Source: an uncultured Clostridium sp.
GTDB lineage: Bacteria > Bacillota > Clostridia > Christensenellales > CAG-138
Assembly: GCA_964392455.1 (NCBI GenBank)
Contig: CAYMPG010000003.1
Coordinates: 802-64,801, forward strand
Direction: 5' to 3'
Length of the DNA: 64,000 bases
Positions 16,515-43,785 of the stretch are shown here, in pieces. Each line of letters opens with the position of its first letter. Positions within the stretch are counted from its first letter, which is position 1. The notes under the pieces are model-generated. The model saw only the letters and a list, made by a program, of their open reading frames with translations. It did no database searches and was not told where the DNA came from. Position numbers and translations under genes: made by a program.

Positions 16515-16655
16515 GAAAATAAGATGGGGAAGCAGGGTGAAATTCCCTCGCAAGTGCGTTACCGTTACAGCCGGATTGCCATGTTGCATATTCCTTTGCG
16601 GACACCGAAGGATATGTGTTGCTGTATACCTTAATGTATAAGTATACCTCCTCAC
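16515..16655 (+). promoter_or_regulatory. Cobalamin riboswitch aptamer (second copy, divergent)
   Basis: 'GGGGAAGCAGGGTGAAATTCCCTCGCAAGTGCGTTACCGTTACAGCCGGATTGCC' shares the same core as the minus-strand copy and has the B12-box AGCCGGA. It lies upstream of cbiD. Confidence 0.75.
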
Positions 16656-16682
16656 ACCACGGTTCCGTTCCGTGGTTTTTTG
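16654..16682 (+). terminator. Intrinsic terminator of the plus-strand riboswitch expression platform
   Basis: ACCACGG (16656-16662) pairs with CCGTGGT (16670-16676), followed by a T-run, about 20 nt before the cbiD RBS. Confidence 0.75.
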
Positions 16683-16702
16683 TGTTTTGGGGAGGTAAGA
16701 TT

Positions 16703-18591: not shown

Positions 18592-19583
18592 AGATAGCTG
18601 CAATAGCCTTCACAGAGCGTGGTATGCAGCTTGGCAGGCAGCTATGCGCCGCCACGAATGAAGTAACCCTTGAGCGGTGCGGGAATGGTATGCTTTCAGG
18701 CTGGACAGAGGCCGCCTTTCAGTCTGCCGATGCAATATTGTTCATAGGTGCCGCGGGCATAGCAGTTCGTGCCATAGCCCCTTTTATAAAGAGCAAAGCT
18801 GCCGATCCGGCAGTTATAGTTATTGATGAAGCCGGGCGGTACGCTATCCCCCTCCTCTCAGGCCATATTGGCGGGGCAAATGACCTTGCCATACGCCTTG
18901 GAGGGCTTATGGGGGCGCAGCCCGTTATTACCACTGCCACCGATATAAATCACACTTTTGCAATAGACACCTGGGCCAAAAAGCAGGGCCTTATCATAGC
19001 CGAGCCGGAGCGCATAAAAAACGTATCCTCAAGGCTCCTCTCAGGCGACAGCATAGGCATACATTCAGCTTATCCCATACACGGCGCTCCTCCCGAGGGC
19101 GTATCGCTGCAAAGCCGGCCATGTGATGCTGACGTACTCATCTCGCATCTTGCGGATAGCGGCAGTGCGCTTCACCTTATTCCCCCGGCTGTTACCCTGG
19201 GCATCGGCTGCCGCCTGGGCAGCAGCGCCCATATGATAGAGGAAGCATTTCAGCTTGCCCTGAAGAAGTCCAATTGCCATCAGGCCGCCATTTGCGGCGT
19301 GGCCAGCATAGACATAAAGCAAGACGAGCCTGGCATAAATGAATTCTGCGTAGCCCGTTCTCTGCCCTTTAGCACCTTTTCTGCAAAAGAGCTTGAAAGA
19401 ACTCAGGGTGAATTTACCCCCTCCCCTTTCGTTAAAAGCGTTACCGGGGTGGATAATGTATGCGAGCGGGCGGCTGTGCTGTCATCCGGCGGTAATCTTA
19501 TTATGAGTAAGATGGCCCATAATGGGGTGACCATGGCGCTGGCAATAAAGGAACCATTATTGTATTTTCAGGAGGACGCATGA
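18588..19583 (+). CDS. cbiG: Cobalt-precorrin-5A hydrolase CbiG
   Basis: 331 aa, with 'IAVRAIAPFIKSKAADPAVIVIDEAG..IPLLSGHIGGAN' and a C-terminal 'LGIGCR' module typical of CbiG. Confidence 0.85.
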   Translation: MKIAAIAFTERGMQLGRQLCAATNEVTLERCGNGMLSGWTEAAFQSADAILFIGAAGIAVRAIAPFIKSKAADPAVIVIDEAGRYAIPLLSGHIGGANDLAIRLGGLMGAQPVITTATDINHTFAIDTWAKKQGLIIAEPERIKNVSSRLLSGDSIGIHSAYPIHGAPPEGVSLQSRPCDADVLISHLADSGSALHLIPPAVTLGIGCRLGSSAHMIEEAFQLALKKSNCHQAAICGVASIDIKQDEPGINEFCVARSLPFSTFSAKELERTQGEFTPSPFVKSVTGVDNVCERAAVLSSGGNLIMSKMAHNGVTMALAIKEPLLYFQEDA

Positions 19584-20311
19584 GCAGGCTGTACGTTGTA
19601 GGCATAGGCCCGGGAGAGCCGGGCGGCATGACGGAAAATGCCCGCAGGGCCCTTGCTGTCTCGGATATTATAGTGGGCTACAAAAAATACGTTGAGCTGG
19701 TGCGCCCCATTATGCCGGATAAGGAATATATGGATTCCAATATGCTTCAGGAAGTAGAGCGCTGCAAGGCTGCCCTTTCCCTTGCCCGCTCCGGCAAATG
19801 CGTATCCCTCATATGCAGCGGCGATGCAGGCGTATACGGTATGGCGGGTCTTGTATATGAGCTTTCGGAAGGTGACCGGACGGTAGAAATAACCATCATA
19901 CCGGGAGTTACCGCAGCACTTAGCGGCGCTGCGCTTCTTGGCGCACCCCTTGGGCATGATTTTGCAGTAATAAGCCTATCAGACCTGCTTACCCCATGGG
20001 AGCTGATAGAAAAGCGTCTCAGATGCTCCGCAGAGGCAGGGCTGTGCATATGCCTTTATAACCCTGCCAGCCACAAGCGGCGGGATCATCTGAAAAAAGC
20101 CTGCGATGTGCTGCTTGAGCTCATCAGCGAAGATACACCCTGCGGCATGGCAAAAAATATAGGCCGTGAAGGCGAAAGCTGCCAGCTTATGAGCCTTGCA
20201 GAGCTCAGGGATGCAGAGGCGGATATGTTTACAACGGTATTCATAGGCAATTCCTCCACGCTGAATATTGGCGGCAAGCTTGTTACCCCCAGGGGGTATC
20301 GCAATGTATGA
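19580..20311 (+). CDS. cbiH: Cobalt-precorrin-3B C17-methyltransferase CbiH
   Basis: 'LYVVGIGPGEPGGMTENARRALAVSDIIVGYKKY' and 'SGDAGVYGMAGL' are present. Confidence 0.9.
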   Translation: MSRLYVVGIGPGEPGGMTENARRALAVSDIIVGYKKYVELVRPIMPDKEYMDSNMLQEVERCKAALSLARSGKCVSLICSGDAGVYGMAGLVYELSEGDRTVEITIIPGVTAALSGAALLGAPLGHDFAVISLSDLLTPWELIEKRLRCSAEAGLCICLYNPASHKRRDHLKKACDVLLELISEDTPCGMAKNIGREGESCQLMSLAELRDAEADMFTTVFIGNSSTLNIGGKLVTPRGYRNV

Positions 20312-21056
20312 CGTGATACTCTTTGGCGGTACCACCGAGGGGCGGCTGCTGGGCGAATTCCTGTGCGATAAGGGCATCCCTGCCCTGGTTTGCGTGGCTA
20401 CTGCCTATGGGGACAGCCTGCTTGACCTCAGGCCCCCCGTGGAAATACGCACCGGCCGCATGGATCAGGAGGAAATGCGCCAGCTCTTTCGTAAGGAACG
20501 TCCCCGGCTCGTGCTTGACGCCACCCACCCCTATGCGGACATAGTCAGCAAAAACATACAAGCCGCCTGCTCCCTTGAGGGCTGCCGCTATCAGCGAATA
20601 AGGCGAGAAGCCACCTGTGCAGAGGGCTGCCTGTTTTTTGACACCATGGATGAGCTTGTGGCCTGGCTGAATAAAACCCATGGCGTAATATTCTCCGCCA
20701 TGGGCGCAAAGGAGGCCGCCGCCCTGTGCAGCGTATCCGATTATAAAAGCAGAATATACCTCCGCCTGCTTCCCTCCCCCGAGGGAATAGCCCATTGCCT
20801 TGAGCTTGGATACCCTACAAAGCACCTTTACTGCATGCAGGGGCCATTTTCTGAGGAATTCAATGTGGCCCAGTTCAGGCAGGCAGGGGCCGCAATCCTT
20901 ATCACCAAGGAATCCGGCCTCCATGGAGGCTTTCCTGAAAAGGCCGCTGCCGCCAGAGCCTGCGAAATGCAGATAGCAGTGCTGAAGCGTCCGCTGGATG
21001 CTGACGGCATTTCCCCACAAGCAGCCATGGAACTTTTACAGGAGATATGCCTATGA
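20304..21056 (+). CDS. cbiJ: Cobalt-precorrin-6A reductase CbiJ
   Basis: 'MYDVILFGGTTEGR', 'DATHPYA' and 'ITKESG' are CobK/CbiJ motifs. Confidence 0.85.
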   Translation: MYDVILFGGTTEGRLLGEFLCDKGIPALVCVATAYGDSLLDLRPPVEIRTGRMDQEEMRQLFRKERPRLVLDATHPYADIVSKNIQAACSLEGCRYQRIRREATCAEGCLFFDTMDELVAWLNKTHGVIFSAMGAKEAAALCSVSDYKSRIYLRLLPSPEGIAHCLELGYPTKHLYCMQGPFSEEFNVAQFRQAGAAILITKESGLHGGFPEKAAAARACEMQIAVLKRPLDADGISPQAAMELLQEICL

Positions 21057-22246
21057 AAAAAATATCCATAATAGGCGCAGGCGTGGGCCCTGCTACCATT
21101 ACCCGGGAGGCCGAAGATGCCATACAGGCCGCAGAGGTGCTGCTTGGGGCAAGGCGCATGCTGGATATGTTTTCTATGCCTGATAAGCAGGCCATAGCTG
21201 CATTTTCTCCGGATGAGGTGCGCCGGGCCATTGATGAAAGCTCCGCCTCTCGCTTTGCCATAATAGTTTCGGGGGATACGGGCTTTTACAGCGCAGCAGA
21301 GGGCCTTTGCAGCGCCCTTTGCAGGGATGAGTACCAGCTAAGGGTGCTTCCCGGCATTTCCTCCCTGAGCTGCCTTTTTGCAAGACTGCGGCGGCCCTGG
21401 CAGGATGTCGCACTTATAAGCTGCCACGGGCGGGATACAAACATCGTGGATACCGTGCGAAGAAACCGGCTCACCTTTGCCCTTACCGGCGCAAATGCCA
21501 ATGAACTGGCAAAAAAGCTCACCGATGCAGGCTTTGGCAGCCTTTCTGCAACAGTGGGAGAAAACGTTGGCGCAGATAACGAATGTATATACACCCTCTC
21601 TGTAGCGGAAATGGAGCATACGGCTATAGCTCCCCTGTGCGTTGTGCTGGTGGACAATCCCCGCTTTGACAGCAGGACACCAACAGGCATACCAGACACC
21701 AGCTTTATCCGCAGCGATATACCCATGACCAAGTCCGAGGTACGTGCAGTCATAATGAGCAGGCTGGCCATACACCCCCATGACATCTGCTGGGACATAG
21801 GCTGCGGCACAGGCTCGGTAACTGTGGAAATGGCGCTCTCCGCCTATCGTGGACACGTATACGCCATAGATAAAAATGAGGCCGCAGCAGCACTCACGCA
21901 GGATAACTGCGCCGCATTTCACATTGGCAATGTTACCGTGCAGACCTGCAGCGCACCCTCAGCCCTCAGCAGCCTACCCATGCCGGATGTGGTATTCATA
22001 GGCGGCAGCGGCGGCAGTATGCAGGCTGTGATAAAGCACGTAGCTGCCATAAACCCAAAGGCCCGCATAGCCGTCACAGCCATCGCCCCCGAAAGCCTTT
22101 GCGCTGCCCTTACAGCCCTTGAGGAATGTGGCATAAAGGCAGATGCCGTTCAGGTATCCATAGCAAGGGCTCAGAAAGCAGCAGGGCTGCATATGCTGAT
22201 GGCCCAGAATCCCATATTTGTAATTACCGGAGGCTGCAATGGGTAG
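21047..22246 (+). CDS. cbiET: Fused CbiE/CbiT precorrin-6B C5,15-methyltransferase/decarboxylase
   Basis: The N-terminal tetrapyrrole methylase half has 'ISIIGAGVGP'. The C-terminal SAM-methyltransferase half has 'MTKSEVRAVIMSRL..WDIGCGTGSVTVE'. The start could be 21047 or 21053. Confidence 0.85.
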   Translation: MPMKKISIIGAGVGPATITREAEDAIQAAEVLLGARRMLDMFSMPDKQAIAAFSPDEVRRAIDESSASRFAIIVSGDTGFYSAAEGLCSALCRDEYQLRVLPGISSLSCLFARLRRPWQDVALISCHGRDTNIVDTVRRNRLTFALTGANANELAKKLTDAGFGSLSATVGENVGADNECIYTLSVAEMEHTAIAPLCVVLVDNPRFDSRTPTGIPDTSFIRSDIPMTKSEVRAVIMSRLAIHPHDICWDIGCGTGSVTVEMALSAYRGHVYAIDKNEAAAALTQDNCAAFHIGNVTVQTCSAPSALSSLPMPDVVFIGGSGGSMQAVIKHVAAINPKARIAVTAIAPESLCAALTALEECGIKADAVQVSIARAQKAAGLHMLMAQNPIFVITGGCNG

Positions 22247-23570
22247 AGTGCTTATCGCCGGCACAAATTCCGGCTGCGGCAAGACCACCGTATCAACAGG
22301 GCTCATGTGCGCCCTAAAGGGCCGTGGGCTTAATATTTCTGCCTTTAAGTGCGGCCCGGATTATATCGATCCCATGTTTCACAGGGAGGCCATAGGCATC
22401 CCCTCCTGCAATCTTGATGTCTTCTTTTCATCGGATACCCAGCTTCGCCGTCAGCTCGCAGAAAGCCCCGGGGATATATCCATAATAGAAGGAGTCATGG
22501 GCTACTATGACGGCATCGGCACAGAGGGCCAGGCCAGCACCTATACCATAGCCCGGGCCACAGATACCCCTGCCATACTGGTAGTAAATGCCAGAGGCAT
22601 GTATACCTCCGCAGGGGCAATAATACAGGGCTTTTTAAATTTCAAGAAAAACAGCGGCATACGTGGAGCAGTATTCAATGGCATATCCAAGGGTACTTAT
22701 TCCGGCCTTTATCAGATAGCAAAGGATGCAGGCATTGCCCCGCTGGGCTTCCTGCCCAATTGTGAGGATATTCATATCGGCAGCCGTCATCTTGGGCTGA
22801 TAACCGCCCCTGAGCTTGCCGACCTTCAGGATAAGCTTGCAGCCCTCGGGCGCATGGTAGAGGATAATATCGATATAAGCGGCATACTGTCCATTGCCTC
22901 CACTGCCCCAAATATAGCCACGCAGCCCACATCCATAAGAAATATATCCGATGTTTCCATCGCCGTAGCCAGGGACAGGGCCTTCTGCTTTATGTACGAT
23001 GAAAATCTGCGGCTGCTCAAGGCCCTTGGCGCAAGGATAATACCCTTCAGCCCCCTTGAGGATGCAGCGCTTCCGGAGGGTATAGGCGGGCTGTACCTTT
23101 GCGGCGGATACCCGGAGCTTTATGCAAAGCAGCTCTCCGGCAACAGCTCAATGCTCCATTCAATACGCACTGCCATAAATAGCGGCCTGCCCACCATAGC
23201 AGAATGTGGCGGATACCTTTACCTTCACGACCTGCTGGATGGGCTGCCCATGGCAGGCGTTATCCACGGGAGTGCCTGCCGTGCAGACAGCCTTCAGCGC
23301 TTTGGCTATGCTACCATTACTGCAAGCGGCGATAATCTCCTTTGCAATGGCGGCGATAGCATCCCGGTTCATGAATTTCACTACTATAAAAGCACATTTG
23401 AGGGCAGCGGCTTCATCGCCAAAAAGGCCGGCAATGGCCGGGAATACCCCTGCGTTTACGCCACGGCGTCTCTGTATGCGGGCTTTCCCCACCTTTATCT
23501 GCCGGCAAATCCCCGCTTTGCAGAATCCTTCATAAGAAAGGCAGCCGCATATGCTTCAGGAGCTTATTAA
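22239..23570 (+). CDS. cbiA: Cobyrinate a,c-diamide synthase CbiA
   Basis: 'IAGTNSGCGKTTVSTGLM..FKCGPDYIDP' and a C-terminal glutamine amidotransferase region 'AECGGYLYL' are present. Confidence 0.9.
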   Translation: MGRVLIAGTNSGCGKTTVSTGLMCALKGRGLNISAFKCGPDYIDPMFHREAIGIPSCNLDVFFSSDTQLRRQLAESPGDISIIEGVMGYYDGIGTEGQASTYTIARATDTPAILVVNARGMYTSAGAIIQGFLNFKKNSGIRGAVFNGISKGTYSGLYQIAKDAGIAPLGFLPNCEDIHIGSRHLGLITAPELADLQDKLAALGRMVEDNIDISGILSIASTAPNIATQPTSIRNISDVSIAVARDRAFCFMYDENLRLLKALGARIIPFSPLEDAALPEGIGGLYLCGGYPELYAKQLSGNSSMLHSIRTAINSGLPTIAECGGYLYLHDLLDGLPMAGVIHGSACRADSLQRFGYATITASGDNLLCNGGDSIPVHEFHYYKSTFEGSGFIAKKAGNGREYPCVYATASLYAGFPHLYLPANPRFAESFIRKAAAYASGAY

Positions 23571-24600
23571 TAAAATCCACCCGGCAGACAGTGCCATATA
23601 TGACGACTGCATCGGGGTATTTAACAGCATCGCCAAGCCCATAGGCGGCCTCGGCAGGCTGGAAGGGCTCATAGCCCGCATAGGCGCTGCATCAGGCAGC
23701 ACCCGTATAGACATAGCTGAAAAATGCGTGCTGGTATTCTGCGCGGATAATGGAGTAGCTGCCCAGGGCGTGGCCCAGTGCTCACCCTCCGTTACCGCCT
23801 CCATTGCCCGCATGATGGCAGAGGGAAACTCCAGCGTATGCGTCATGGCAGCGGCGGCAGGGGCTGACATTATCCCTGTAGATATCGGCATAAACGGCCC
23901 TGCGCCCGGACTTATGGACTGTAAGCTCATGCCAGGCACAGGGGATATCTCCACCGGCCCCGCCATGACGGCCCAATGTGCCATGGATGCAATACTTATC
24001 GGCATAAGCCTTGCAGAGCGGCAGAAAAAGGCAGACTATAAGCTGATTGCCACGGGGGAAGCAGGCATAGGCAATACCACCACCGCAGCCGCCATGGCAA
24101 GCCTTTTGCTGCATATACCTCCCGAGCAGGCCGCAGGCCGCGGCGCAGGGCTTTCTGATGAGGGCCTGAAAAGAAAGATAGCGGCCATACGCCGGGCTCT
24201 GGAGGTCAACAGGCCGGATGTTAACGACCCTCTGGATGTGCTCGCAAAGGTCGGCGGGCTGGATATAGCCGCAATGACAGGCGTTTTTCTTGGCGGCGCG
24301 CTGCACCATATACCTGTGGTGATAGATGGAATAATATCCTCCGTTGCAGCGCTGACGGCAGTGCGGCTATGCCCCCATGCAAGGGATTATATGCTGCCCT
24401 CCCACCTGAGCTCAGAGCCTGTGGGGCCGCTGCTCATGGATGAGCTGGGCTTCTCCCCCATGCTCCATGGGGAAATGCACCTTGGGGAGGGCACAGGGGC
24501 AGTTGCCCTTTTCCCGCTGCTGGATATGGCCGCAGCAGTATACCACAGCGGCGCAAGGTTTCACGAAATCTCTCTGGAGGCATACAGCGTAGACCCATGA
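23551..24600 (+). CDS. cobT: Nicotinate-nucleotide--dimethylbenzimidazole phosphoribosyltransferase CobT
   Basis: 'KPIGGLGRLE', 'ADNGV', 'GEAGIGNTT' and 'GEGTGA' motifs are present. Confidence 0.9.
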   Translation: MLQELINKIHPADSAIYDDCIGVFNSIAKPIGGLGRLEGLIARIGAASGSTRIDIAEKCVLVFCADNGVAAQGVAQCSPSVTASIARMMAEGNSSVCVMAAAAGADIIPVDIGINGPAPGLMDCKLMPGTGDISTGPAMTAQCAMDAILIGISLAERQKKADYKLIATGEAGIGNTTTAAAMASLLLHIPPEQAAGRGAGLSDEGLKRKIAAIRRALEVNRPDVNDPLDVLAKVGGLDIAAMTGVFLGGALHHIPVVIDGIISSVAALTAVRLCPHARDYMLPSHLSSEPVGPLLMDELGFSPMLHGEMHLGEGTGAVALFPLLDMAAAVYHSGARFHEISLEAYSVDP

Positions 24601-25115
24601 TGATGCTTATACTGGGCAAAAATGGCAGTGGAAAAAGCCTTTATGCCGAAAACGCCGCCTGCCGCCTTTCTGATGGCGCACTTTACTATATTGCCACCAT
24701 GATACCCTATGGCAGCGAGGGCGCCAATCGCATTGAGCGGCACAGGGCGCAGCGCAGCGGCAAGGGCTTTATTACCATAGAAGCCCCATATGGAGAAGCC
24801 ACAGGCATCTCCGGCACGGTGCTGCTGGAGGATGTATCAAACCTTGCGGCAAACCTGATGTTTGATAAGAAACTGCCCTCCCCCGAAGACCAAGCTGTTG
24901 AGCGGATAAGCAGGCTGAATAGCGTATCTGCTAACCTTATCGCAGTAAGCATCAGCGGCCTCGATGGGCAGGGCTGCTCGGATGAGGATACCTTATCTTA
25001 CATAAGGCTTATGAATAACGTGAATCGTCGGCTTGAACTCATGGCCGATGTGGTAATAGAAATGGCAAGCGGCATTGCCACCATAAAAAAAGGAGGCTCA
25101 TTATGGCCGTATTAA
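24597..25115 (+). CDS. cobU: Adenosylcobinamide kinase/adenosylcobinamide-phosphate guanylyltransferase CobU
   Basis: 172 aa with the P-loop 'ILGKNGSGKSLYAE'. It sits between cobT and cobS. Confidence 0.8.
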   Translation: MMMLILGKNGSGKSLYAENAACRLSDGALYYIATMIPYGSEGANRIERHRAQRSGKGFITIEAPYGEATGISGTVLLEDVSNLAANLMFDKKLPSPEDQAVERISRLNSVSANLIAVSISGLDGQGCSDEDTLSYIRLMNNVNRRLELMADVVIEMASGIATIKKGGSLWPY

Positions 25116-25870
25116 GGGCAATATGCATTGCTTTTTCCACATATTCCGCCATCCCCATGCCACGGGTAGAATGGAGCGGCCAGGGCAGACGCTATGCAAT
25201 CTGCGCCCTGCCATTGGTGGGCATTATAATAGGCATCCTGCTGCTTGTGTGGTATAGAATATGTGCCCTGCTCAATATAGGCCAGGCGTTATTCTCCGCA
25301 GTGGCCTCTGCCCTGCCGCTGATGATAAGCGGCGGCATACATATGGATGGCTTCTGCGATACCGTGGATGCGCTGTCCTCCCATCAATCAAAGGAGCGCA
25401 AGCTGGAAATACTCAAAGATCCCCATACAGGGGCCTTTGCCGTTATATATGCTATCGTATATATGCTAATATGCTTCGGAGCATACACAGAGCTGTATGA
25501 TATGCGCTGCATTTCAGTAATCTGCACAGGGTTTGTGCTTTCCCGCAGCCTGTGCGTGCTTACGGTGCTTACCACCCCAAATGCCCGCAGGGGCGGCATG
25601 CTCTCAGCCCTTACTGAGGACATGGCCCGTGGGCTAATATGGGGGATAACAGCCGTTTTTCTTCTTGGGGCAATGGCCTGCATGGCGGCCCTCTTTCCTG
25701 CCGCTGGCTGTCCCTCCATACTGCTGTGCTGGTGCTGGTTTTTCCTTTACCGGGCCATGACGCTCAGAGAATTTGGCGGGGTGACCGGAGATACCTCAGG
25801 GTTTTTCCTGCAAATATCAGAGGCACTTATACTGCTTGGCTGCGTGGGAGGCAGCGCCGTTTTATCATGA
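25103..25870 (+). CDS. cobS: Adenosylcobinamide-GDP ribazoletransferase CobS
   Basis: A polytopic membrane protein with 'HMDGFCDTVDAL' and 'GGVTGD'. Confidence 0.9.
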   Translation: MAVLRAICIAFSTYSAIPMPRVEWSGQGRRYAICALPLVGIIIGILLLVWYRICALLNIGQALFSAVASALPLMISGGIHMDGFCDTVDALSSHQSKERKLEILKDPHTGAFAVIYAIVYMLICFGAYTELYDMRCISVICTGFVLSRSLCVLTVLTTPNARRGGMLSALTEDMARGLIWGITAVFLLGAMACMAALFPAAGCPSILLCWCWFFLYRAMTLREFGGVTGDTSGFFLQISEALILLGCVGGSAVLS

Positions 25871-26433
25871 AAAGGCTATGGCTAATACGCCACGGGGAAA
25901 CCGATGGCAACAGCAGAAAAAAATACATAGGCATTACAGATGAGCCGCTGAATGACACCGGGCGCAGACAGGCAGCCGCCCTATGCGCCATTGAAGCGGA
26001 TGAGGTTTTCACAAGCCCCCTGATGCGCTGCATTGAAACAGCGCAGCTCGCCTTTCCAAATATGCAGCACAAGATATGCGCTGGCCTTGCCGAATGTAAC
26101 TTTGGCATATTTGAAGGGAAAAGCGCCGATGAGATGGCATCACTGCCTGCCTACAGGCACTGGGTGGATACAGGCTGCCTTGAAGCCATACCCGGCGGCG
26201 AAAGCGTATCCGGCTTTAAGGAGCGGTGCTGCGCTGCCTTCCTTGAGGCGCTGGGCTCATCCTCTGCACGGTGCCCCGCCTTTGTAATACACGGCGGCTG
26301 CATAATGGCCATAATGGAGCGCCTTGAGGGCAGCAGAAGCTTTTATGATTATCACATCGATAACGGCGGCGCTGTCCTTTGTGAATATGACGACCAGGGC
26401 AGGCTCCGCATACTTGGAGGTTTTCCATGGTGA
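25867..26433 (+). CDS. cobC: Alpha-ribazole phosphatase CobC (histidine phosphatase family)
   Basis: 'LWLIRHGETDGN' is the RHG motif. The ATG overlaps the cobS stop (ATGA). The longer ORF from 25639 lies out of context inside cobS. Confidence 0.8.
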   Translation: MKRLWLIRHGETDGNSRKKYIGITDEPLNDTGRRQAAALCAIEADEVFTSPLMRCIETAQLAFPNMQHKICAGLAECNFGIFEGKSADEMASLPAYRHWVDTGCLEAIPGGESVSGFKERCCAAFLEALGSSSARCPAFVIHGGCIMAIMERLEGSRSFYDYHIDNGGAVLCEYDDQGRLRILGGFPW

Positions 26434-27413
26434 TATACTCTGCCGGAGCAATGCTGCTTGGCTTCATTCTGGATATGCTGCTGGGAGACCCCCGTGGTAT
26501 ACCCCATATAGTCATCGCCATGGGCAGGCTGATAGCCCTGCTTGAAAATAAGCTGCGGGCCGCCTTCCCAAAATCGGCAAGGGGCGAGCTTTTATCAGGC
26601 CTTACGTTGGTGCTTATAATGCTGCTTGCATGGAGCGCACTGCCACTGCTGGTATTGTATTCGCTTTACAGAGTCTCGCCATGGGCCGGCGTAATCATGG
26701 AAGGGGTGCTGTGCTGGCAGCTCATAGCGGCAAGGGACCTTAAGGACGAAAGCATGGCCGTATATGAAAGGCTGGCTGCCAATGACCTTTCAGGTGCCCG
26801 CAAGGCAGTTTCCATGATAGTTGGCCGGGATACCATGGCTCTTGATGAGGCGGGCGTTACAAGGGCTGCTGTGGAAACAATAGCCGAAAATACCTCCGAT
26901 GGCGTGATTGCCCCAATGTTCTATATGCTGCTGGGCGGCGGTGTGCTGGGCTGCGTATACAAGGCGGTAAACACCATGGATTCCATGGTGGGGTATAAAA
27001 ACGAAAAGTACCTCTACTTTGGCCGTGCCGCTGCAAGGCTGGATGACGTATTGAATTTTATCCCCGCCCGGCTGTCAGCGGAGCTTATGATACTATCCAG
27101 CCGCATCATCGGCCTTAACAGTAAAAACGCCAGACGAATATACCTTAGGGACAGGCGCAAGCATCCCAGCCCAAACTCTGCCCATACCGAGGCAGTCTGT
27201 GCCGGGGCTCTTGAGGTACGCCTGGCAGGAAACGCATGGTACTTTGGCCAGCTTTACAAAAAGCCGTACATCGGTGATGATATACGTCCTATTGAGCCTG
27301 AGGATATCCCCCGGGCAAACCGGCTCATGCTTACCACGTCTGTGCTTATGCTGCTGCTTTGCCTGGCTGTACGCATTATCATAGCAGGAGGAATGTACTA
27401 TGGAGCGCTATGA
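26427..27413 (+). CDS. cbiB: Adenosylcobinamide-phosphate synthase CbiB
   Basis: A membrane protein with 'LGDPRGIPHIVIAMG' and 'AENTSDGVIAPMFY'. Confidence 0.9.
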   Translation: MVIYSAGAMLLGFILDMLLGDPRGIPHIVIAMGRLIALLENKLRAAFPKSARGELLSGLTLVLIMLLAWSALPLLVLYSLYRVSPWAGVIMEGVLCWQLIAARDLKDESMAVYERLAANDLSGARKAVSMIVGRDTMALDEAGVTRAAVETIAENTSDGVIAPMFYMLLGGGVLGCVYKAVNTMDSMVGYKNEKYLYFGRAAARLDDVLNFIPARLSAELMILSSRIIGLNSKNARRIYLRDRRKHPSPNSAHTEAVCAGALEVRLAGNAWYFGQLYKKPYIGDDIRPIEPEDIPRANRLMLTTSVLMLLLCLAVRIIIAGGMYYGAL

Positions 27414-28437
27414 CCATGGCGGGAACAGGTTTTCCTGTGAAAACATACGGCTGGATTTTTCCGTAAGCCTCAACCCTCTGGGTATGCCTCCAGAAGTAAA
27501 GGAAGCAGTATCCTCCGCCATTGCAGAATATGAAACATATCCCGATACCCGCTGCCGTAGGCTGTGCAGTGCCATTGCCGCCCGGGATGGGGTGCAGCCT
27601 GACGACGTGCTGTGTGGAAACGGCGCATCGGAGCTAATATACCGCCTGTGCCTTGTAACACAGCCCAAGACCACCCTGCTGCTGGCCCCCACCTTCTCGG
27701 AATACGAGCGGGCGGCGCTGCTATATGGCAGCAGCATACGCTATCACTATCTGGATGAATACAATGGGTTTGCCCTCACTGAAAGCATACTTAAGGACAT
27801 TACCCCTGAGATAGACCTTTTTTTCCTGTGCAATCCCAACAACCCCACAGGCCAGCTTGTGGATATAAACCTTATGGAGGCCATCGCCCACCGATGCCAC
27901 GCCACCGGTACACAGCTAATGGTGGATGAATGCTTCCTTTCCCTCACAGAGGGCACCTCCTGCCGGGCGCTGCTGGATAAATACCACAATATGCTGCTGC
28001 TGGATGCCTTCACCAAGAGATATGCCATGGCCGGGCTAAGGCTCGGGTATGGCGTTTCAAAGAATCATGCCCTCATGGAAAAGCTTGCAGATGCCGGGCC
28101 ATGCTGGAATGTATCAGCAGCGGCACAGGCCGCCGGGCTTGCCGCCCTTGAATGCGGCGAATATGAGCAGCAGGCAAAGGCCCTTCTCAGCTCTGAGCGC
28201 AGCTTTCTTACCGGCGCACTGAAGGAGCTGGGGCTAAAGGTATACCCCTCTCAGGCAAACTATCTGCTGTTTTCCTGTGAAAAGGAGCTTAAGGAGCCGC
28301 TGATGAGCAAAGGGATGCTCATACGCTCCTGCGAAAACTTTGAGGGGCTGGATCGGCGCTATTACCGGGTATGCATAATGAAGCATCAGTACAATTGCGA
28401 GCTTGTCGCAGCACTCAGGGAGGTACTTAATGGCTAA
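27400..28437 (+). CDS. cobD: Threonine-phosphate decarboxylase CobD (class I/II aminotransferase fold)
   Basis: 'DFSVSLNPLGMP', 'NPNNPTG' and 'FTKRYAMAGLRLGY' (PLP lysine context) are present. Confidence 0.85.
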   Translation: MERYDHGGNRFSCENIRLDFSVSLNPLGMPPEVKEAVSSAIAEYETYPDTRCRRLCSAIAARDGVQPDDVLCGNGASELIYRLCLVTQPKTTLLLAPTFSEYERAALLYGSSIRYHYLDEYNGFALTESILKDITPEIDLFFLCNPNNPTGQLVDINLMEAIAHRCHATGTQLMVDECFLSLTEGTSCRALLDKYHNMLLLDAFTKRYAMAGLRLGYGVSKNHALMEKLADAGPCWNVSAAAQAAGLAALECGEYEQQAKALLSSERSFLTGALKELGLKVYPSQANYLLFSCEKELKEPLMSKGMLIRSCENFEGLDRRYYRVCIMKHQYNCELVAALREVLNG

Positions 28438-29914
28438 GCCTATCATGATACAGGGCACCATGTCCAATGCTGGCAAAAGCCTGCTGTGTACAGGGCTTTG
28501 CAGGGTATTCAGGCAGGATGGGTACAGGGTAGCCCCATTTAAAAGCCAGAATATGGCCCTTAATTCCCACATCACCGCCGATGGGCTGGAAATGGGCCGT
28601 GCCCAGGCAGTGCAGGCAGAGGCCTGCGGCCTGGAGCCCTCCGTACATATGAATCCAATACTTCTAAAGCCCGTTACGGACATGGGCTCCCAGGTGATAG
28701 TAAATGGCCGGGTATTGGGCAACATGAAGGCCGCCGATTATTTTGCCATGAAAAAGAGCCTGATACCTGATATTATGAGCGCATATGATGCACTTGCGGC
28801 GCAAAATGATATAATCGTAATAGAAGGCGCAGGGAGCCCCGCAGAGATAAACCTCAAGCAGGATGACATCGTAAATATGGGCATGGCCCGCATGGCCGGG
28901 GCACCTGTGCTGCTGGTTGGAGATATTGACCGTGGCGGCGTATTCGCCCAGCTTGCAGGTACGCTTATGCTGCTAAATAAGGATGAGCAGGCCATGGTAA
29001 AGGCCACCGTGATAAACAAATTCCGTGGGGATGTTGAGCTGCTGCGCCCCGGCCTTGATATGCTGTACGGCATTACCGGCAAGCCCGTGGCAGGGGTACT
29101 GCCTTACCTTAAGGTGAATATCGAGGCAGAGGACAGCCTGTCCCAGCCCTCATCAAAGGGACATGAGGCCATAGATATTGCGGTAATACGGTTTCCCCGC
29201 ATTTCAAATTTTACCGACCTTGCGCCCCTTGAGGCCACGCCCGGCGTGGGCGTAAGATATATATCCTCCCCCCTTGAGCTGGGTACGCCGGATATGCTGG
29301 TGCTGCCCGGCACCAAGAATACCATATCCGATCTGCTGTGGCTTAGAAGCTCCGGCCTTGAGGGCAGTATAAAAGCGCTGTCACATGGCAGCACGCTTAT
29401 CGTTGGCATATGCGGCGGCTACCAGATGCTGGGCAGGAGCATTAAAGACCCTGAAGGCGTTGAGGGCGGCGGCGAAATAACAGGGCTGGGGCTGCTTCCC
29501 GTTCATACGACATTCCGGCGGCAAAAGCACCGTACCCGCACCACAGGCAGCATAATCTGCTCAGGCGAGCTGCAGCCCCTTAACGGCCTATCGATATACG
29601 GTTACGAGATACACATGGGCAGCACTTCCCCCGAGCCCGGAGCCCAGCCCCTTTTGCTGCTGGACAATGGCCTTACTGACGGCTGCATTTCAGGGAATGT
29701 TTTAGGGAGCTATCTGCATGGCTTTTTCGATAGCGCCGAATGTCGCCAAGGCATAATAAACCTGTTATGCCAGCGAAAGGGTATAGACCCCTCCGCCTAT
29801 GCAGCCTTTGACTACACCCTATACAAAGAACAGCAATACGACCTGCTGGCAGATGCGCTAAGGAGCAGCCTTGATATGAGCATGATATACCGTATACTTG
29901 AGGAGGGCATATGA
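28430..29914 (+). CDS. cobQ: Cobyric acid synthase CobQ/CbiP
   Basis: 'IMIQGTMSNAGKSLL..APFKSQNMALNS', 'EGAGSPAEINL' and a C-terminal GATase region 'GICGGYQMLG' are present. Confidence 0.9.
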   Translation: MAKPIMIQGTMSNAGKSLLCTGLCRVFRQDGYRVAPFKSQNMALNSHITADGLEMGRAQAVQAEACGLEPSVHMNPILLKPVTDMGSQVIVNGRVLGNMKAADYFAMKKSLIPDIMSAYDALAAQNDIIVIEGAGSPAEINLKQDDIVNMGMARMAGAPVLLVGDIDRGGVFAQLAGTLMLLNKDEQAMVKATVINKFRGDVELLRPGLDMLYGITGKPVAGVLPYLKVNIEAEDSLSQPSSKGHEAIDIAVIRFPRISNFTDLAPLEATPGVGVRYISSPLELGTPDMLVLPGTKNTISDLLWLRSSGLEGSIKALSHGSTLIVGICGGYQMLGRSIKDPEGVEGGGEITGLGLLPVHTTFRRQKHRTRTTGSIICSGELQPLNGLSIYGYEIHMGSTSPEPGAQPLLLLDNGLTDGCISGNVLGSYLHGFFDSAECRQGIINLLCQRKGIDPSAYAAFDYTLYKEQQYDLLADALRSSLDMSMIYRILEEGI

Positions 29915-30435
29915 ACGGCCTGATACACATCTACACCGGCGACGGCAAAGGCAAGACCACCGCAGCCCTCGGGCTGGCCATTCGGGCTGCAGGCTGTGGC
30001 AAGAGGGTGCTTATTGTGCAGTTTTTCAAGGGCAGAGATTGCGGAGAGCTGCACTCGCTGGAGCTGATTAAAAACATTTCCCTCCTCCGCCCCGAGGCCT
30101 GCCACGGCTTCTATAAGTACATGACCGACGACCAGCGAAAGGAAATATATCAGGAGCATACCCGGCTCCTTTCTCTTGCCCTGGAGCAGGCCCACAGCGG
30201 CACATTGGATATGCTCATACTGGATGAGGTAATGTCTGCCTATCAGCACGACGCAGTGGATACGACCATGGTAGACGCTCTGCTGCAAAGCAAGCCCGCC
30301 ACCCTTGAGCTTGTGCTGACAGGCCGTGATGCCCCTCCCCACTTCATAGCCATGGCTGACTATGTAACAGAAATGCACAAGGTAAAGCACCCCTACGATA
30401 GGGGCATTTCCGCAAGGGAGGGAATAGAATTTTGA
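29911..30435 (+). CDS. cobO: Cob(I)yrinic acid a,c-diamide adenosyltransferase (CobO/BtuR type)
   Basis: 'IHIYTGDGKGKTTAALGLAIRAAGCGKRVLIVQFFKG', 'LDE' and 'TGR.AP' are present. Confidence 0.9.
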   Translation: MNGLIHIYTGDGKGKTTAALGLAIRAAGCGKRVLIVQFFKGRDCGELHSLELIKNISLLRPEACHGFYKYMTDDQRKEIYQEHTRLLSLALEQAHSGTLDMLILDEVMSAYQHDAVDTTMVDALLQSKPATLELVLTGRDAPPHFIAMADYVTEMHKVKHPYDRGISAREGIEF

Positions 30436-31064
30436 CCCATAATATTGACAATATCTCCCCCGGAGATATTGAAAAGCGCAGCTTTGAGATCATCCAATCA
30501 GAGCTGCCCCATCCCCTGGACCCTGAGCTTGCCCCGATCATAAAGCGGGTGATACACGCCTCAGCGGATTTTGACTATGCCGATAATATGTATTTTTCCG
30601 ATAACGCCGTAAAGCACGCCCTTAGCGCCATACTTGAGGGCGCATGCATAGTTACCGATACAAACATGGCTAAGGGGGGAATAAATAAAAAAGCTTTGTC
30701 CAGGCACGGCGGAGAGGTATTCTGCTTTATGGCAGATGAGGACATACAGCTTTCTGCAAAGGCCAACGGCACCACCCGGGCAGCGGCCTCCATGGACAAG
30801 GCCTGCGCCATAGACCGGCCGCTGATATTCGCCATAGGCAATGCACCCACGGCGCTGATACGGCTGCACGAGCTGATTTCCGATGGCCGTATTTCCCCCC
30901 GGCTCATAATCGGCGCACCTGTTGGCTTTGTAAATGTCATTCCGGCGAAGGAGCTCATCATGGAGCTGGATACGCCCTGCATAGTTGCCCGGGGACGCAA
31001 GGGCGGCAGCAATATCGCCGCCGCAATATGCAATGCCCTGCTGTATATGCTGGGCCGGGAATAG
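30432..31064 (+). CDS. cbiC: Cobalt-precorrin-8 methylmutase CbiC
   Basis: TTG start. 'IEKRSFEII', 'VIHASADFDY', 'IGNAPTAL' and 'IIGAPVGFV' are present. Confidence 0.9.
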   Translation: MTHNIDNISPGDIEKRSFEIIQSELPHPLDPELAPIIKRVIHASADFDYADNMYFSDNAVKHALSAILEGACIVTDTNMAKGGINKKALSRHGGEVFCFMADEDIQLSAKANGTTRAAASMDKACAIDRPLIFAIGNAPTALIRLHELISDGRISPRLIIGAPVGFVNVIPAKELIMELDTPCIVARGRKGGSNIAAAICNALLYMLGRE

Positions 31065-31155: not shown

Positions 31156-31388
31156 TTGCGTATATTGGTGATCAGTAAGCGCACGCTCATAATTGCTGCC
31201 ATAGTTCTTCTGGTGCTCATCGTTGCCATCCTGCTGCTGCTCAGCTTCGCCCCCGATGCGGCTGCCGCCAGCTCACGCCCCATTGAGGAATACGAGCTGG
31301 AAGTCCTTGCAGGGCAAAAAAAAGAGCTGCCCATCTACAGCGTAGACCGCAGCGATAAAAAAATAGCCCTTACCATTGATGCAGCATG
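31156..31388 (+). pseudogene. 5' fragment (codons 1-77) of a split NodB-type, PdaB-like polysaccharide deacetylase gene
   Basis: The TTG start lies 8 nt after GGAGGTG. An N-terminal TM anchor is followed by 'PIYSVDRSDKKIALTIDAA'. After 31388 the frame continues into unrelated sequence for 7 codons and stops (31408-31410). The missing remainder is found at 43770..44345. Confidence 0.85.
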
Positions 31389-31516: not shown

Positions 31517-32212
31517 GTTTAAGACCCCTCTGGAATTACACAGCTCTCAAACGCGGCGGCGTTCATGGCGTAGTATTCTACGGTTTAAGACCCCTCTGGA
31601 ATTACACAGCTCTCAAACATGACAAGCTCTTTCATGCGGACTTGCTTTGTTTAAGACCCCTCTGGAATTACACAGCTCTCAAACAGACGCTGGAAGAAGC
31701 AAGGGCACGCTTCGGTTTAAGACCCCTCTGGAATTACACAGCTCTCAAACTGCCGAGCCTTATGTTATCGAGAAAGATGAGTTTAAGACCCCTCTGGAAT
31801 TACACAGCTCTCAAACGGTGGCTGAGGCCGCTCCTCTTTCTCCGGTGTTTAAGACCCCTCTGGAATTACACAGCTCTCAAACGGAGCCATCCTTCCAAGC
31901 GAGCTTGACCCGGTTTAAGACCCCTCTGGAATTACACAGCTCTCAAACAAGAACTGAATATAACGAGCCTTAAAGAAAGTTTAAGACCCCTCTGGAATTA
32001 CACAGCTCTCAAACTATTTTTTATGCATTTTCTTTTTCTTATTTGTTTAAGACCCCTCTGGAATTACACAGCTCTCAAACAACCCCCCAAAGCACCTTCC
32101 GCATAGGCTCGTTTAAGACCCCTCTGGAATTACACAGCTCTCAAACGAGCCGACCTCTCAAAGGCTATCCGTGATGGTTTAAGACCCCTCTGGAATTACA
32201 CAGCTCTCAAAC
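31517..32212 (-). CRISPR. CRISPR array: 11 identical 36-bp repeats and 10 spacers of exactly 30 bp
   Basis: The plus-strand repeat is GTTTAAGACCCCTCTGGAATTACACAGCTCTCAAAC at 31517, 31583, 31649, 31715, 31781, 31847, 31913, 31979, 32045, 32111 and 32177. In the transcribed (minus) orientation it is GTTTGAGAGCTGTGTAATTCCAGAGGGGTCTTAAAC, a type II-A-like repeat. Confidence 0.98.
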
Positions 32213-41781: not shown

Positions 41782-41913
41782 TTATGCCTCCGGCTGCCTG
41801 TCCTGGTGGGCCTTTATCAGCTCTATCACCACCTGCTCAGGGCTCTTTTCGCCGGAAAAAAACCTTACCACCTTTATGCCGCCTTCCATTTCATCGTTTG
41901 CCCGGGTATCCAT
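41782..41913 (-). CDS. Small ORF (43 aa) immediately upstream of the recombinase pair; possible directionality/accessory factor
   Basis: The product is 'MDTRANDEMEGGIKVVRFFSGEKSPEQVVIELIKAHQDRQPEA'. GGAGGAGG lies about 7 nt before the ATG, and the stop is 3 nt before the recombinase ATG. It is below the ORF-track length cutoff and was found by hand translation. Confidence 0.45.
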   Translation of the reverse strand: MDTRANDEMEGGIKVVRFFSGEKSPEQVVIELIKAHQDRQPEA

Positions 41914-42014
41914 AGAGCGCCTCCTCCTTTTTTCTTTTATAAATCTCTATTTCGCCCATACGGCCCATATGAATGGTTTCACAAATAAAATCCCTGGCCT
42001 GTGCTGTTTATATG

Positions 42015-42050
42015 CAAAAACCCCACGGGCTGCATTTGCACCCATGGGGC
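42015..42050 (-). terminator. Rho-independent terminator after the cNMP-binding genes
   Basis: On the minus strand, CCCCATGGG-loop-CCCGTGGGG is followed by TTTTTG. Confidence 0.65.
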
Positions 42051-42085
42051 TTTGCTAAATTCAATGGGCTGTCTACGGGCTGGGG

Positions 42086-42586
42086 TCAGTATATGCGCCC
42101 ATTGATGTATGTATCCGATATGGCCTCCACATAGTCGTTTATAAACTTGCCAACCTTTTCCCAGAACATTCCCTCCCGGGGCTTATCTTCCTCCTCCTTC
42201 TTTACGGCCTCTGCCACCGCCCGGCAGGTCTCCAGGTAATCTCTGGTAAGCTCCCGCGTGCGCCGGCTCAGGTTTTTCATAATGCACAGCAGCGCCTCAG
42301 GGTCATCTCCAAAGTAATCTGCAAAGGCCTCCCCGGTGACCAGCCTGGTTTCAACATCATCCAGCGCAACTGCCGTGGCAGATCGGCGCATGGAGTCCAC
42401 CAGGCCAATTATGCCCACAGTGGCGCCGGGGCCGCCCTTTACCTCGGTAAGCTTGAATTCATCCGGCATGCCGTAGTTTTTATATATGCCCACCGTGCCG
42501 CTTCGCAGGTCATACATCCACATTTCGAAGCTGCCCTCTTTATATATGACATCGCCCTTTTTAAACAGGCGGGTGGTATCTTCCAT
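42086..42586 (-). CDS. Cyclic-nucleotide-binding-domain protein without a DNA-binding domain (166 aa)
   Basis: 'FKKGDVIYKEGSFEMWMYDLRSGTVGIY..VGIIGLVDSMRRSATAVAL' is a Crp-like beta-barrel. It is followed only by a helical tail. ATG at 42586 lies 1 nt after the upstream stop. Confidence 0.75.
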   Translation of the reverse strand: MEDTTRLFKKGDVIYKEGSFEMWMYDLRSGTVGIYKNYGMPDEFKLTEVKGGPGATVGIIGLVDSMRRSATAVALDDVETRLVTGEAFADYFGDDPEALLCIMKNLSRRTRELTRDYLETCRAVAEAVKKEEEDKPREGMFWEKVGKFINDYVEAISDTYINGRIY

Positions 42587-42587
42587 T

Positions 42588-43013
42588 TTACTTTTCCTCC
42601 ACTGCCTTTTCCCCTTGTGAGCTAAGAGCCTCTGCAAGGGCACTGCGGGCCTCCATGTAATCTCTGGTGATATCACGGATGCGCCTGCACATATTCTGTA
42701 TAATATCCACCACCCTCTCAGGCCGCTCATTCAGATAAAACCTGAAGGTCTCTCTTGTGATTATCTCAAGCCTCGTTTCCCCATCCATGGCTATTGCCGT
42801 GGCGCTGTGAGGCACCTGATCCACAAAGCTCATTTCTCCAAACACCTCATCGCCACGGCGCAGAGCCAGCATTTTTTCATTCTCCGTGCCGTAGTCCACA
42901 TATATGCCCACGCTGCCCCAGCGTATATCATACATACACTCGGCAGGCTCTCCCTGCCTGAATATTATCTCTCCCTTTTTATAGGTTCTATATTCCCTGC
43001 TTGATGCTGCCAC
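42588..43013 (-). CDS. Cyclic-nucleotide-binding-domain protein without a DNA-binding domain (141 aa), paralogue
   Basis: 'YKKGEIIFRQGEPAECMYDIRWGSVGIYV..FGEMSFVDQVPHSATAIAM' is present. It shares the helix 'RRIRDITRDYMEA' (versus 'RRTRELTRDYLET') with its paralogue. The GTG start is uncertain. Confidence 0.7.
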   Translation of the reverse strand: MAASSREYRTYKKGEIIFRQGEPAECMYDIRWGSVGIYVDYGTENEKMLALRRGDEVFGEMSFVDQVPHSATAIAMDGETRLEIITRETFRFYLNERPERVVDIIQNMCRRIRDITRDYMEARSALAEALSSQGEKAVEEK

Positions 43014-43058
43014 CCTGCAAATTCCTGCCTTTCATAATGCTGCCTGTCAAATGCCCTT

Positions 43059-43592
43059 TTACACGCGCCTGCCCATATCATAGGCATCCGCCATGGCCTT
43101 TGTACCCTTTATTTCTCCCTTTTCATAAACGCCCATGCCGCATATCACGCCCATTTCCCTTGCGCCCTCTATGCAGTCAGCATAGCCTCTCAGGCAGGCC
43201 AGCGGCGTATCCGCAGAAGCCAGCTCCTCATCCGCCGCAGTCACTATATAATACAGATCCTTGTCCTTTACCTCAGTCCAGCGGGCGACAGTTCTATCAA
43301 TAAGTGCCTTAAGCTGGGCGCTGATGGAATAAAAGTAGACGGGGCTTGCAAGCAGGATAACATCTGCATCTATCATCTTTTGCAGCACCTGACCCATATC
43401 GTCATCTATAACGCAGCTTCCTTTTTTACAGGCATAGCAGCCCCTGCAAAACCCTATATTTTTCTCGGCCACCCTTATCTTCTCCACGGTATGGCCCATT
43501 TCCATTGCACCCCGCATAAATTCATCGCAGAGCATATCAGAATTGCCGCCCTTTCGGGGACTGCCGGACAGTATCAATACATTTTTACCCAT
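43059..43592 (-). CDS. Flavodoxin-like fold NAD(P)H-dependent FMN reductase/iron-sulfur flavoprotein family protein
   Basis: 'KNVLILSGSPRKGGNS' and 'DADVILLASPVYFYSISAQLKALIDR' are present. GGAGG lies 8 nt before the ATG at 43592. Confidence 0.8.
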   Translation of the reverse strand: MGKNVLILSGSPRKGGNSDMLCDEFMRGAMEMGHTVEKIRVAEKNIGFCRGCYACKKGSCVIDDDMGQVLQKMIDADVILLASPVYFYSISAQLKALIDRTVARWTEVKDKDLYYIVTAADEELASADTPLACLRGYADCIEGAREMGVICGMGVYEKGEIKGTKAMADAYDMGRRV

Positions 43593-43661
43593 TTTATTGC
43601 CTCCACTTATCATACTGGCTGCATCACACAGCCTCTGCCCCCATAGCTCGAGCGCACCTTA

Positions 43662-43691
43662 AATATACAATGAAACGCCTCTGCATTTCAA
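43662..43691 (-). promoter_or_regulatory. Candidate promoter for the flavodoxin/cNMP operon, just inside attR
   Basis: On the minus strand, TTGAAA (43691-43686) is followed by an 18-nt spacer ending in TG and then TATATT (43667-43662). Confidence 0.5.
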
Positions 43692-43744: not shown

Positions 43745-43785
43745 TCCATCCACATTATCAGCCTCAGCATGGGAAGACGACAAGA
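43745..43785. other. attR junction of the inserted element (crossover at or near TG 43770-43771)
   Basis: The element half is 'CCACATTatcAGCCTCAGCA', then TG, then the host half 'ggaagacgacaag', which resumes the deacetylase reading frame. Confidence 0.8.

Follow-up and report, generated by a model that had tools for sequence, protein, structure and literature searches.

Two stand-alone cyclic-nucleotide-binding-domain proteins in a mobile element of an uncultured Clostridium belong to a family of split and fused tandem-domain proteins

Results

The right arm of a 12.4-kb mobile element in the genome of an uncultured Clostridium sp. (contig CAYMPG010000003.1, of which a stretch of 64,000 nucleotides, here called the window, was analysed) encodes a flavoprotein of the flavodoxin fold and two small paralogous proteins that each consist of a cyclic-nucleotide-binding (CNB) domain followed by a long helix. 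The three open reading frames (ORFs), A, B and C, are all co-oriented on the minus strand and, together with their promoter, occupy positions 42086–43691. Gene A (43059–43592) encodes a protein of 177 amino acids (aa) that matches the Pfam families FMN_red and Flavodoxin_2; counted from its first ATG the ORF extends over 43059–43613 and 184 aa, and the start likely lies at the ATG at 43592, because homologues are 177–178 aa long and a GGAGG stands 8 nt upstream of that codon. Gene B (42588–43013; 141 aa) begins with GTG, and the N-terminus of its product, MAASSREY, agrees with the N-termini of homologues. Gene C (42086–42586) encodes 166 aa. A gap of 45 bp separates A from B, and a single base lies between the stop codon of B and the ATG of C.

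Upstream of the trio, a scan detected a sigma-70-type promoter (TTGAAA-18-TATATT, 43662–43691, minus strand) that matches at 10 of 12 positions. Its –35 hexamer is placed some 75 bp inward of attR, where the element ends on the right, in agreement with the initial annotation. By itself the match is weak, as the region yielded four sites that resemble promoters and chance alone would give 2.6; in another copy of the element, diverged in sequence but occupying the same insertion site (L011; loci of the survey are designated by such numbers), both hexamers are identical and the spacer carries three substitutions. After gene C, a GC-rich hairpin followed by UUUUU (about 42014–42055, minus strand) was recognized by RNA folding as an intrinsic terminator, with a minimum free energy of –30.5 kcal/mol and a z-score of –2.84 for the segment 42005–42090. 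A simple terminator scan gave no call for this hairpin, which is conserved in L011 and stands between the trio and the small ORF and recombinase genes downstream. Comparison with Rfam at E ≤ 1 identified no known RNA family, riboswitches included, in the operon, its leader or its surroundings. An inverted repeat, TGAAA-N10-TTTCA (43671–43690, minus strand), overlaps the –35 hexamer and the spacer of the trio promoter; its arms are retained in L011 despite the changed spacer, and it is a possible operator site.

The sole Pfam domain of both B and C is cNMP_binding (B, 4.8e-18, 65.4 bits; C, 6.6e-12, 45.7 bits; gathering cut-off 27.5), and the two proteins are 37% identical. No helix-turn-helix (HTH) family of Pfam matches either protein even at E ≤ 1, and in NCBIfam the CRP, NtcA and Fnr models are matched only in part, along their N-terminal halves, and below threshold. 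Beyond the barrel there are about 45 residues in B and about 70 in C, and the C-helices quoted in the initial annotation of this locus, RRIRDITRDYMEA and RRTRELTRDYLET, are present in the translations. The AlphaFold2 model of C (predicted local distance difference test, pLDDT, 79) consists of a β-barrel (residues 5–83) and a short B helix (85–94), after which there are two helices only, the C-helix (96–133) and a tail helix (140–161) that is amphipathic as judged by its hydrophobic moment (GMFWEKVGKFINDYVEAISDTY). In a Foldseek search of the PDB, this model aligned over 108–121 columns, that is, over its CNB and C-helix part only, with CRP, GlxR, FNR, CprK and the cAMP-sensing domain of Bd1971 (best E about 1e-7); the target-normalised template-modelling (TM) scores against full-length CRP-type proteins are about 0.37–0.42, since nothing in C corresponds to the DNA-binding domains of the targets. 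The PDB sequence matches of B cover CNB domains only. A cryptic HTH was ruled out by Pfam, NCBIfam, protein length, the structure model and the Foldseek search.

The layout proposed in the initial annotation, a flavodoxin-fold gene followed by two paralogues of 141 and 166 aa with a promoter and a terminator of their own, is upheld by the ORFs, the Pfam matches, the promoter and the hairpin. By the profile searches that it called for, and for C also by the structure model and Foldseek, both paralogues have a CNB domain and a C-helix and lack a DNA-binding domain. The label 'Crp-like' is appropriate at the level of the fold; at the level of sequence, the best matches include the CNB domains of PKG and PKA (2.6e-14) as well as CRP.

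The pair belongs to a sizeable family. A word-indexed search identified 52 close relatives, all 89–178 aa long and with cNMP_binding as their sole Pfam domain; the few that are named at the source are called 'cyclic nucleotide-binding domain-containing protein' and come from metagenome-assembled genomes of Clostridia or Coriobacteriales. A full profile search retrieved 461 cluster representatives at E ≤ 1e-30, many of them 300–345 aa long with two matched stretches, and the hidden Markov model of the family scores B at 223 bits and C at 198 bits. The family, uncharacterised so far, occurs in Clostridia of the gut and the rumen and, more widely, among anaerobic Firmicutes and in a small number of other phyla. 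Next to each relative of B stands a second CNB gene. The 53 non-redundant loci comprise 21 adjacent pairs of CNB-only genes, 27 single fused tandem-CNB genes and five single or truncated genes. The model of one fused homologue, P0064 (pLDDT 87.5; predicted TM-score 0.82), contains two modules of barrel plus C-helix connected by a disordered linker, the first of which retains the tail helix; in the family, the motif of this helix, located after the C-helix, is (E)KSGWF...F...Y. Outside the subclade of immediate relatives described below, the two cyclase-linked operons L003 and L019 contain the nearest relatives of both proteins, gene 1 being the one most similar to B (61–64% identity) and gene 2 the one most similar to C (58–62%), which argues that the pair was inherited as a unit. 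That the family alternates between pair and fusion, that B and C are translationally coupled and that their similarity rankings run in parallel together suggest that the two proteins act as one unit.

A class III nucleotidyl cyclase (PF00211) is encoded within 5 kb in 33 of the 44 loci for which at least 2.5 kb of downstream sequence is available, nearly always on the strand of the CNB genes and close by. This cyclase is usually fused to a PAS domain (430–475 aa; Pfam PAS and Guanylate_cyc) and is then often accompanied by a 260-aa TIM-barrel protein of the AP_endonuc_2 family; shorter cyclases have as their companion a 265-aa protein of the metallo-β-lactamase fold (Lactamase_B_2), and in L057 the TIM barrel is fused to the PAS-cyclase. 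Operons that combine a CNB receptor, a putative hydrolase and a cyclase, as judged by the Pfam domains in the neighbourhood, include L003 (10001–13226), L019 (7977–11196), L043 (4298–6799), L009 (9062–11623) and about 30 more, from Clostridia of rumen and gut, from some Coriobacteriales and from Anaerolineae. The canonical phosphate-binding cassette, [FLV]GE[MLI]...R[ST][AG]T[AV], is present in nearly all readable CNB domains of the cyclase-linked loci. By its gene content, the operon bears the signature of a self-contained cyclic-nucleotide module with a cyclase, a possible hydrolase and a receptor, and the TIM-barrel or metallo-β-lactamase-fold protein could be the matching phosphodiesterase. 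This combination is apparently undescribed so far: literature searches on stand-alone or tandem bacterial CNB proteins, on CNB sponges and on cAMP receptors of Firmicutes yielded no paper about this family or its cyclase operon, and the census paper by Galperin contained nothing relevant to the tandem-CNB family.

Large proteins of the architecture dCache-HAMP-SpoIIE(PP2C)-HATPase_c_2 recur beside the CNB/cyclase operon (L022, L027, L031, L047, L049, L052 and L053), accompanied in L022, L052 and L053 by ORFs of about 99 aa without annotation; there are hints here that the CNB/cyclase module is linked to partner-switching signalling. A separate subfamily is formed by single CNB-only genes of 158–167 aa (L061, 7983–8459; L062, 1862–2338; L064, 2776–3279), each abutting a convergent 310-aa gene that has no Pfam match, near a conserved three-gene cluster. 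At these three loci neither a second CNB gene nor a cyclase is present.

The pair in the window, together with the pairs of L002, L005, L012 and L014, forms a derived subclade (identity to the window's proteins, 72–79% for B and 66–74% for C), and no cyclase is present at the five loci within the 6–9 kb available. Residues were mapped to E. coli CRP, the sequence of which served for this mapping only. The phosphate-binding cassette of B, GEMSFVDQVPHSATA, has a histidine at the position of R82, the phosphate contact, and that of C, VGIIGLVDSMRRSATA, has an isoleucine at the position of E72, the ribose contact. These changes are shared across the subclade: cassettes of the B type read GEMSFVDxVPHS, with PHS in 22 of 22, and those of the C type read G[IT]IGL..[RC]RSATA in all five, with isoleucine or threonine replacing E72. 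Each subunit keeps one of the two contacts, the glutamate in B and the arginine in C, and neither has the canonical cAMP/cGMP cassette, which requires both; the equivalent of S83 and an invariant C-helix threonine aligned with S128 are retained in both subunits. The tail helix is retained in C (EGMFWEKVGKFINDYVEAI, residues 140–161), and B and all B-type sequences of the subclade lack the C-terminal tail (EKSGWF...F...Y) as well as the conserved cysteine of the C-helix.

The ratio of nonsynonymous to synonymous substitution rates (dN/dS) is 0.06 for A in the comparison with L011, 0.08–0.18 for B and 0.03–0.24 for C; taken by comparison, it is 0.08–0.24 against the subclade relatives and 0.03–0.09 between the two copies of the element (dS 0.13–0.33). 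All three genes are under purifying selection, and the changes of the subclade are fixed, not decaying. From the altered residues it would appear that the ligand affinity or specificity of the window's pair has changed.

Two further features were seen around relatives of the pair. ORFs of 57–64 aa without a Pfam match lie about 130 bp upstream of the CNB pair in L002 (571–765), L015 (570–743) and L016 (876–1049). In the closest relatives outside the element, dinB (IMS family) lies 7–243 bp downstream of the pair; in L014 the distance is 7–25 bp, depending on the start called, and the pair and dinB may be co-transcribed there.

Gene A has a history of its own. Its matches to FMN_red (2.7e-24, 85.9 bits, cut-off 24) and Flavodoxin_2 (2.3e-15, 57.3 bits) place it in an abundant group, with 6234 homologues at E ≤ 1e-30, the few of them named at the source being called 'flavodoxin family protein'. 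The protein contains a compact cysteine motif, CRGCYACKKGSC, which reads CX2CX2CX4C, and the form CX2CX2CX4-6C is found in 119 of its 120 best homologues. The published motif of Isf, CX2CX2CX5-7C, is the ligand of a [4Fe-4S] cluster (PMC3164229); the X4 spacing of gene A is one residue under the published X5-7, and among the 120 homologues 87 have X5 and 31 have X4. Against the sequences in the PDB, gene A had no match to Isf itself at E ≤ 0.001, the best match being 7d38 ('Cd1', 6e-13). Outside the element, the nearest homologues are 75–81% identical, as against 97–100% for the element's own copies, and they stand alone in unrelated chromosomal contexts, e.g., after spoIIR or an Abhydrolase_3 gene, with no CNB gene as a neighbour. 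The trio was therefore rejected as a conserved unit. It is a lineage-specific join of unrelated chromosomal genes, the flavoprotein gene being a separate acquisition, because the relatives of the flavoprotein stand alone and the CNB pair usually adjoins a class III cyclase.

The anatomy of the surrounding element was described correctly in the initial annotation. The core CAGCATG, the only 7-mer common to both junction regions, marks the left end (attL, 31382–31388) and the right end (attR, 43765–43771), and when the flanking halves are joined across it an uninterrupted polysaccharide deacetylase of 268 aa results, with ...TIDAAWEDDKT... restored. The best family match of this protein is the sporulation protein PdaB (TIGR02764, 1.3e-59, profile positions 1–190 of 191), with a score of 201 bits that is under the curated cut-off of 237, hence pdaB-like. 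The element carries a complete type II-A CRISPR-Cas locus, with a CRISPR array (31517–32212, 36-bp repeat), csn2, cas2, cas1 and cas9 (1361 aa; TIGR01865, 1.9e-270), and two adjacent genes for large serine recombinases of the CcrB/XisF type, 308 bp from the trio. Interruption of sporulation genes by elements that serine recombinases excise has been described before (PMC5595907, PMC4191935). A CRISPR-Cas system as the cargo of an element that splits a sporulation-type gene seems unusual. By cluster look-up, the proteins of the element are found in one to three contigs only, namely the NCBI contig of the window and up to two Logan contigs, and the 523-aa recombinase, used as a query against metagenome and viral contigs, revealed no further copies. 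A 43-aa ORF, MDTRANDEMEGGIKVVRFFSGEKSPEQVVIELIKAHQDRQPEA (41782–41913, minus strand), stops 4 bp short of the first recombinase gene; it is conserved in L011, has no NCBIfam match and could encode a recombination directionality factor or a small regulator. Directly to the left of the element lies a long run of co-oriented genes (16616–31064, plus strand); judged by eye, the translations of some of its ORFs resemble cobalamin-biosynthesis proteins (CobO-type and precorrin-8X methylmutase-type).

The neighbourhood survey that had been proposed, on whether the trio travels with the recombinase pair, with Cas9 or with neither, has a divided outcome. No locus outside this element, which is represented by the window, L001 and L011 at 97–100% amino-acid identity, showed the trio; elsewhere the CNB pair and the flavoprotein are separate, and at the 52 other non-redundant loci of the family there is neither a serine recombinase near the pair nor an Isf-like gene. 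The trio is thus not a common chromosomal housekeeping operon; the CNB pair, for its part, belongs to the ordinary signalling modules of chromosomes and is not generally associated with mobile elements. Searches of IMG/VR, phage GenBank records and plasmids found no member of the family, only generic CNB matches of less than 35% identity, and in a structural search of BFVD the single significant match was a full-length Crp-type protein; on these grounds a viral or anti-defence analogue was rejected.

Discussion

The best reading of these data, which we hold with moderate confidence, is that B and C together make up a sensor for a small ligand, heterodimeric and with a protein–protein output, which is orphaned from its cyclase and carried by the element as cargo. 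B and C would be the two halves of a split tandem-CNB receptor and would associate as a CRP-like heterodimer through their long C-helices, with a small-ligand pocket in each β-barrel. Since there is no DNA-binding or enzymatic domain, the output would pass through contact with another protein, for which the amphipathic tail helix of C is the only candidate surface. The pair in the window could sense a cyclic nucleotide whose synthesis is encoded elsewhere in the genome, or else a related metabolite. It has come to lie behind an Isf-like flavoprotein gene of a widespread kind, with one promoter for all three genes, and the trio is probably passenger cargo that stands outside the recombination and CRISPR-Cas9 machinery.

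Several points weigh against this scheme. The 64-kb window, which is the part of the host genome that was searched, contains no PF00211 cyclase. Pockets with histidine for arginine and isoleucine for glutamate may bind no cyclic nucleotide at all, and the phosphate-binding cassette of C is modelled at a pLDDT of 58 and without its usual short helix. For the B:C heterodimer, the model of the fused homologue is only a proxy. The status of cargo is deduced from the missing linkage at other loci, and the trio and its promoter are conserved across two diverged copies of the element, so that a role specific to the element is possible. The survey itself is biased, in that most of its loci come from the 80 top matches to a single, central member of the family, with one genome per species, and its ORFs come from a crude caller.

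Among the alternatives, B and C could be regulatory subunits of the Isf-like flavoprotein with which they are co-transcribed, making up a redox or oxidative-stress module controlled through the tail helix of C. We consider this unlikely: A, B and C have one promoter and one terminator in common, all three genes are under purifying selection, pairs of the subclade lie near stress or redox genes (dinB in L002, L012 and L014; Thioredoxin_3 in L005), and Isf proteins are redox-active proteins of anaerobes (PMC3164229), but the flavoprotein adjoins the pair in one of 53 loci, that of this element, its nearest homologues stand alone, and the closest pairs, at 72–79% identity, function without it.

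About equally improbable is the proposal that B and C are ligand-blind pseudo-receptors, which would act constitutively, as a scaffold or by antagonising a canonical receptor. The replacements of arginine in B and of glutamate in C do hit both canonical contacts with the cyclic nucleoside monophosphate (cNMP), the five subclade loci are without a cyclase, and the low-confidence, helix-less cassette in the model of C is in keeping with a pocket that has lost its function. Against this, the altered cassettes are strictly conserved (PHS in 22/22 and G[IT]IGL..RSATA in 5/5), dN/dS is low, and each subunit keeps the other contact as well as the C-helix threonine, which points to a changed rather than a dead pocket.

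That the pair serves the mobile element, sensing a nucleotide to control excision by the serine recombinases or the Cas9 module, was among the roles first envisaged for it, and we now think it improbable by a wide measure. That the trio lies within the element, at a distance of 308 bp from the recombinase genes, and is retained with its promoter in the second copy at the same site would fit such a role. A link to the regulation of excision or of the Cas module is nevertheless not supported: the proteins have no DNA-binding domain, the trio is a transcription unit of its own with a strong terminator before the recombinase genes, no recombinase lies near the pair at the 52 other loci, and the closest pairs reside in plain chromosomal settings. 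A related idea of similarly low probability treats the subclade with its histidine and isoleucine as a re-tuned heterodimeric receptor that the element would have captured for coupling or sequestration. Its ligand would be neither 3',5'-cAMP nor cGMP but another nucleotide, such as a cyclic pyrimidine, a 2',3'-cNMP or one linked to damage or stress; the receptor would couple excision, Cas9 activity or host stress tolerance to the signal, or sequester an immune nucleotide.

Least probable of all is that B and C soak up a nucleotide as a sponge or take part in defence or counter-defence in the manner of Pycsar, which would fit their position beside CRISPR-Cas: the PADLOC models for PycTIR and TIR effectors match the CNB parts of B and C (33 and 20 bits), the cyclases of related operons match the PycC models at 63–76 bits, and some of these operons encode a metallo-β-lactamase-fold protein, the fold of the anti-Pycsar protein Apyc1, but the matches are at the domain level only, Pfam detects no TIR or transmembrane domain in either protein and there is no cyclase in the window, the related cyclases, PAS-fused and near SpoIIE and HATPase_c_2 partner-switching genes, have a housekeeping look, no family member was found in phages, IMG/VR or plasmids, the sole significant viral structural match is the full-length Crp-type protein, and the literature search found no paper describing a CNB sponge, so that membership in Pycsar was rejected.

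If B and C are, as we favour, an orphaned sensor carried as cargo, then the sensor-only proteins beside Cas9 are most simply passengers and offer no lead into CRISPR or excision regulation. What they lead to is a conserved, unstudied module that combines a PAS-regulated class III cyclase, a putative hydrolase and an output-less, two-part CNB receptor. The universal presence of 3',5'-cAMP in Firmicutes was called unclear in a 2016 paper (PMC5217690), and a dedicated cyclase–receptor operon provides a concrete place for testing this question. The orphan subclade, with its complementary pocket changes, can be regarded as a natural experiment in the shift of CNB specificity once the cognate cyclase has been lost. 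Together, the cyclase/tandem-CNB operon and the orphan subclade are a reasonable small lead in the cyclic-nucleotide signalling of Firmicutes.

Comparison with known systems

With Isf of Methanosarcina thermophila and the FMN_red family, the product of gene A shares the flavodoxin-like FMN_red fold and a compact N-terminal cysteine cluster; it differs in the spacing CX2CX2CX4C as opposed to the published CX2CX2CX5-7C. Like the Pycsar systems (PycTIR or PycTM with PycC), the operons related to the CNB pair encode a PF00211 cyclase and a PF00027 CNB receptor. In contrast to Pycsar, B, C and their relatives lack a TIR or transmembrane effector, the window lacks a cyclase, the related cyclases are PAS-regulated, and the 52 other family loci are linked neither to phages nor to defence islands.

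The eight-stranded CNB barrel and the long C-helix, which in CRP is the dimer interface, are shared with the CRP/FNR factors (E. coli CRP, M. tuberculosis CRP and C. glutamicum GlxR), and the cassettes and the C-helix threonine of B and C align with E72, R82, S83 and S128 of CRP. The differences are substantial: B and C have neither the C-terminal winged-HTH domain nor an N-terminal extension before the barrel, C has an additional amphipathic tail helix, and two different subunits are encoded where CRP/FNR factors are homodimers.

As in the tandem CNB modules of the eukaryotic regulatory subunit of PKA (PKA R) and of PKG, a single chain without a catalytic domain comprises both CNB domains in the fused members of the family. 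The fused homologue aligns with these proteins over both domains, with TM-scores of only 0.24–0.32 (normalised to query length), which indicates that the packing of the domains differs; a PKA-R-like arrangement was rejected on this ground. B and C also lack the N3A motif before the barrel, a docking domain or inhibitor sequence is not evident, the protein of the window is split into two genes, and there is no known kinase partner. Even so, PKA R and PKG, in which a cNMP receptor acts by binding another protein, provide the closest functional analogy.

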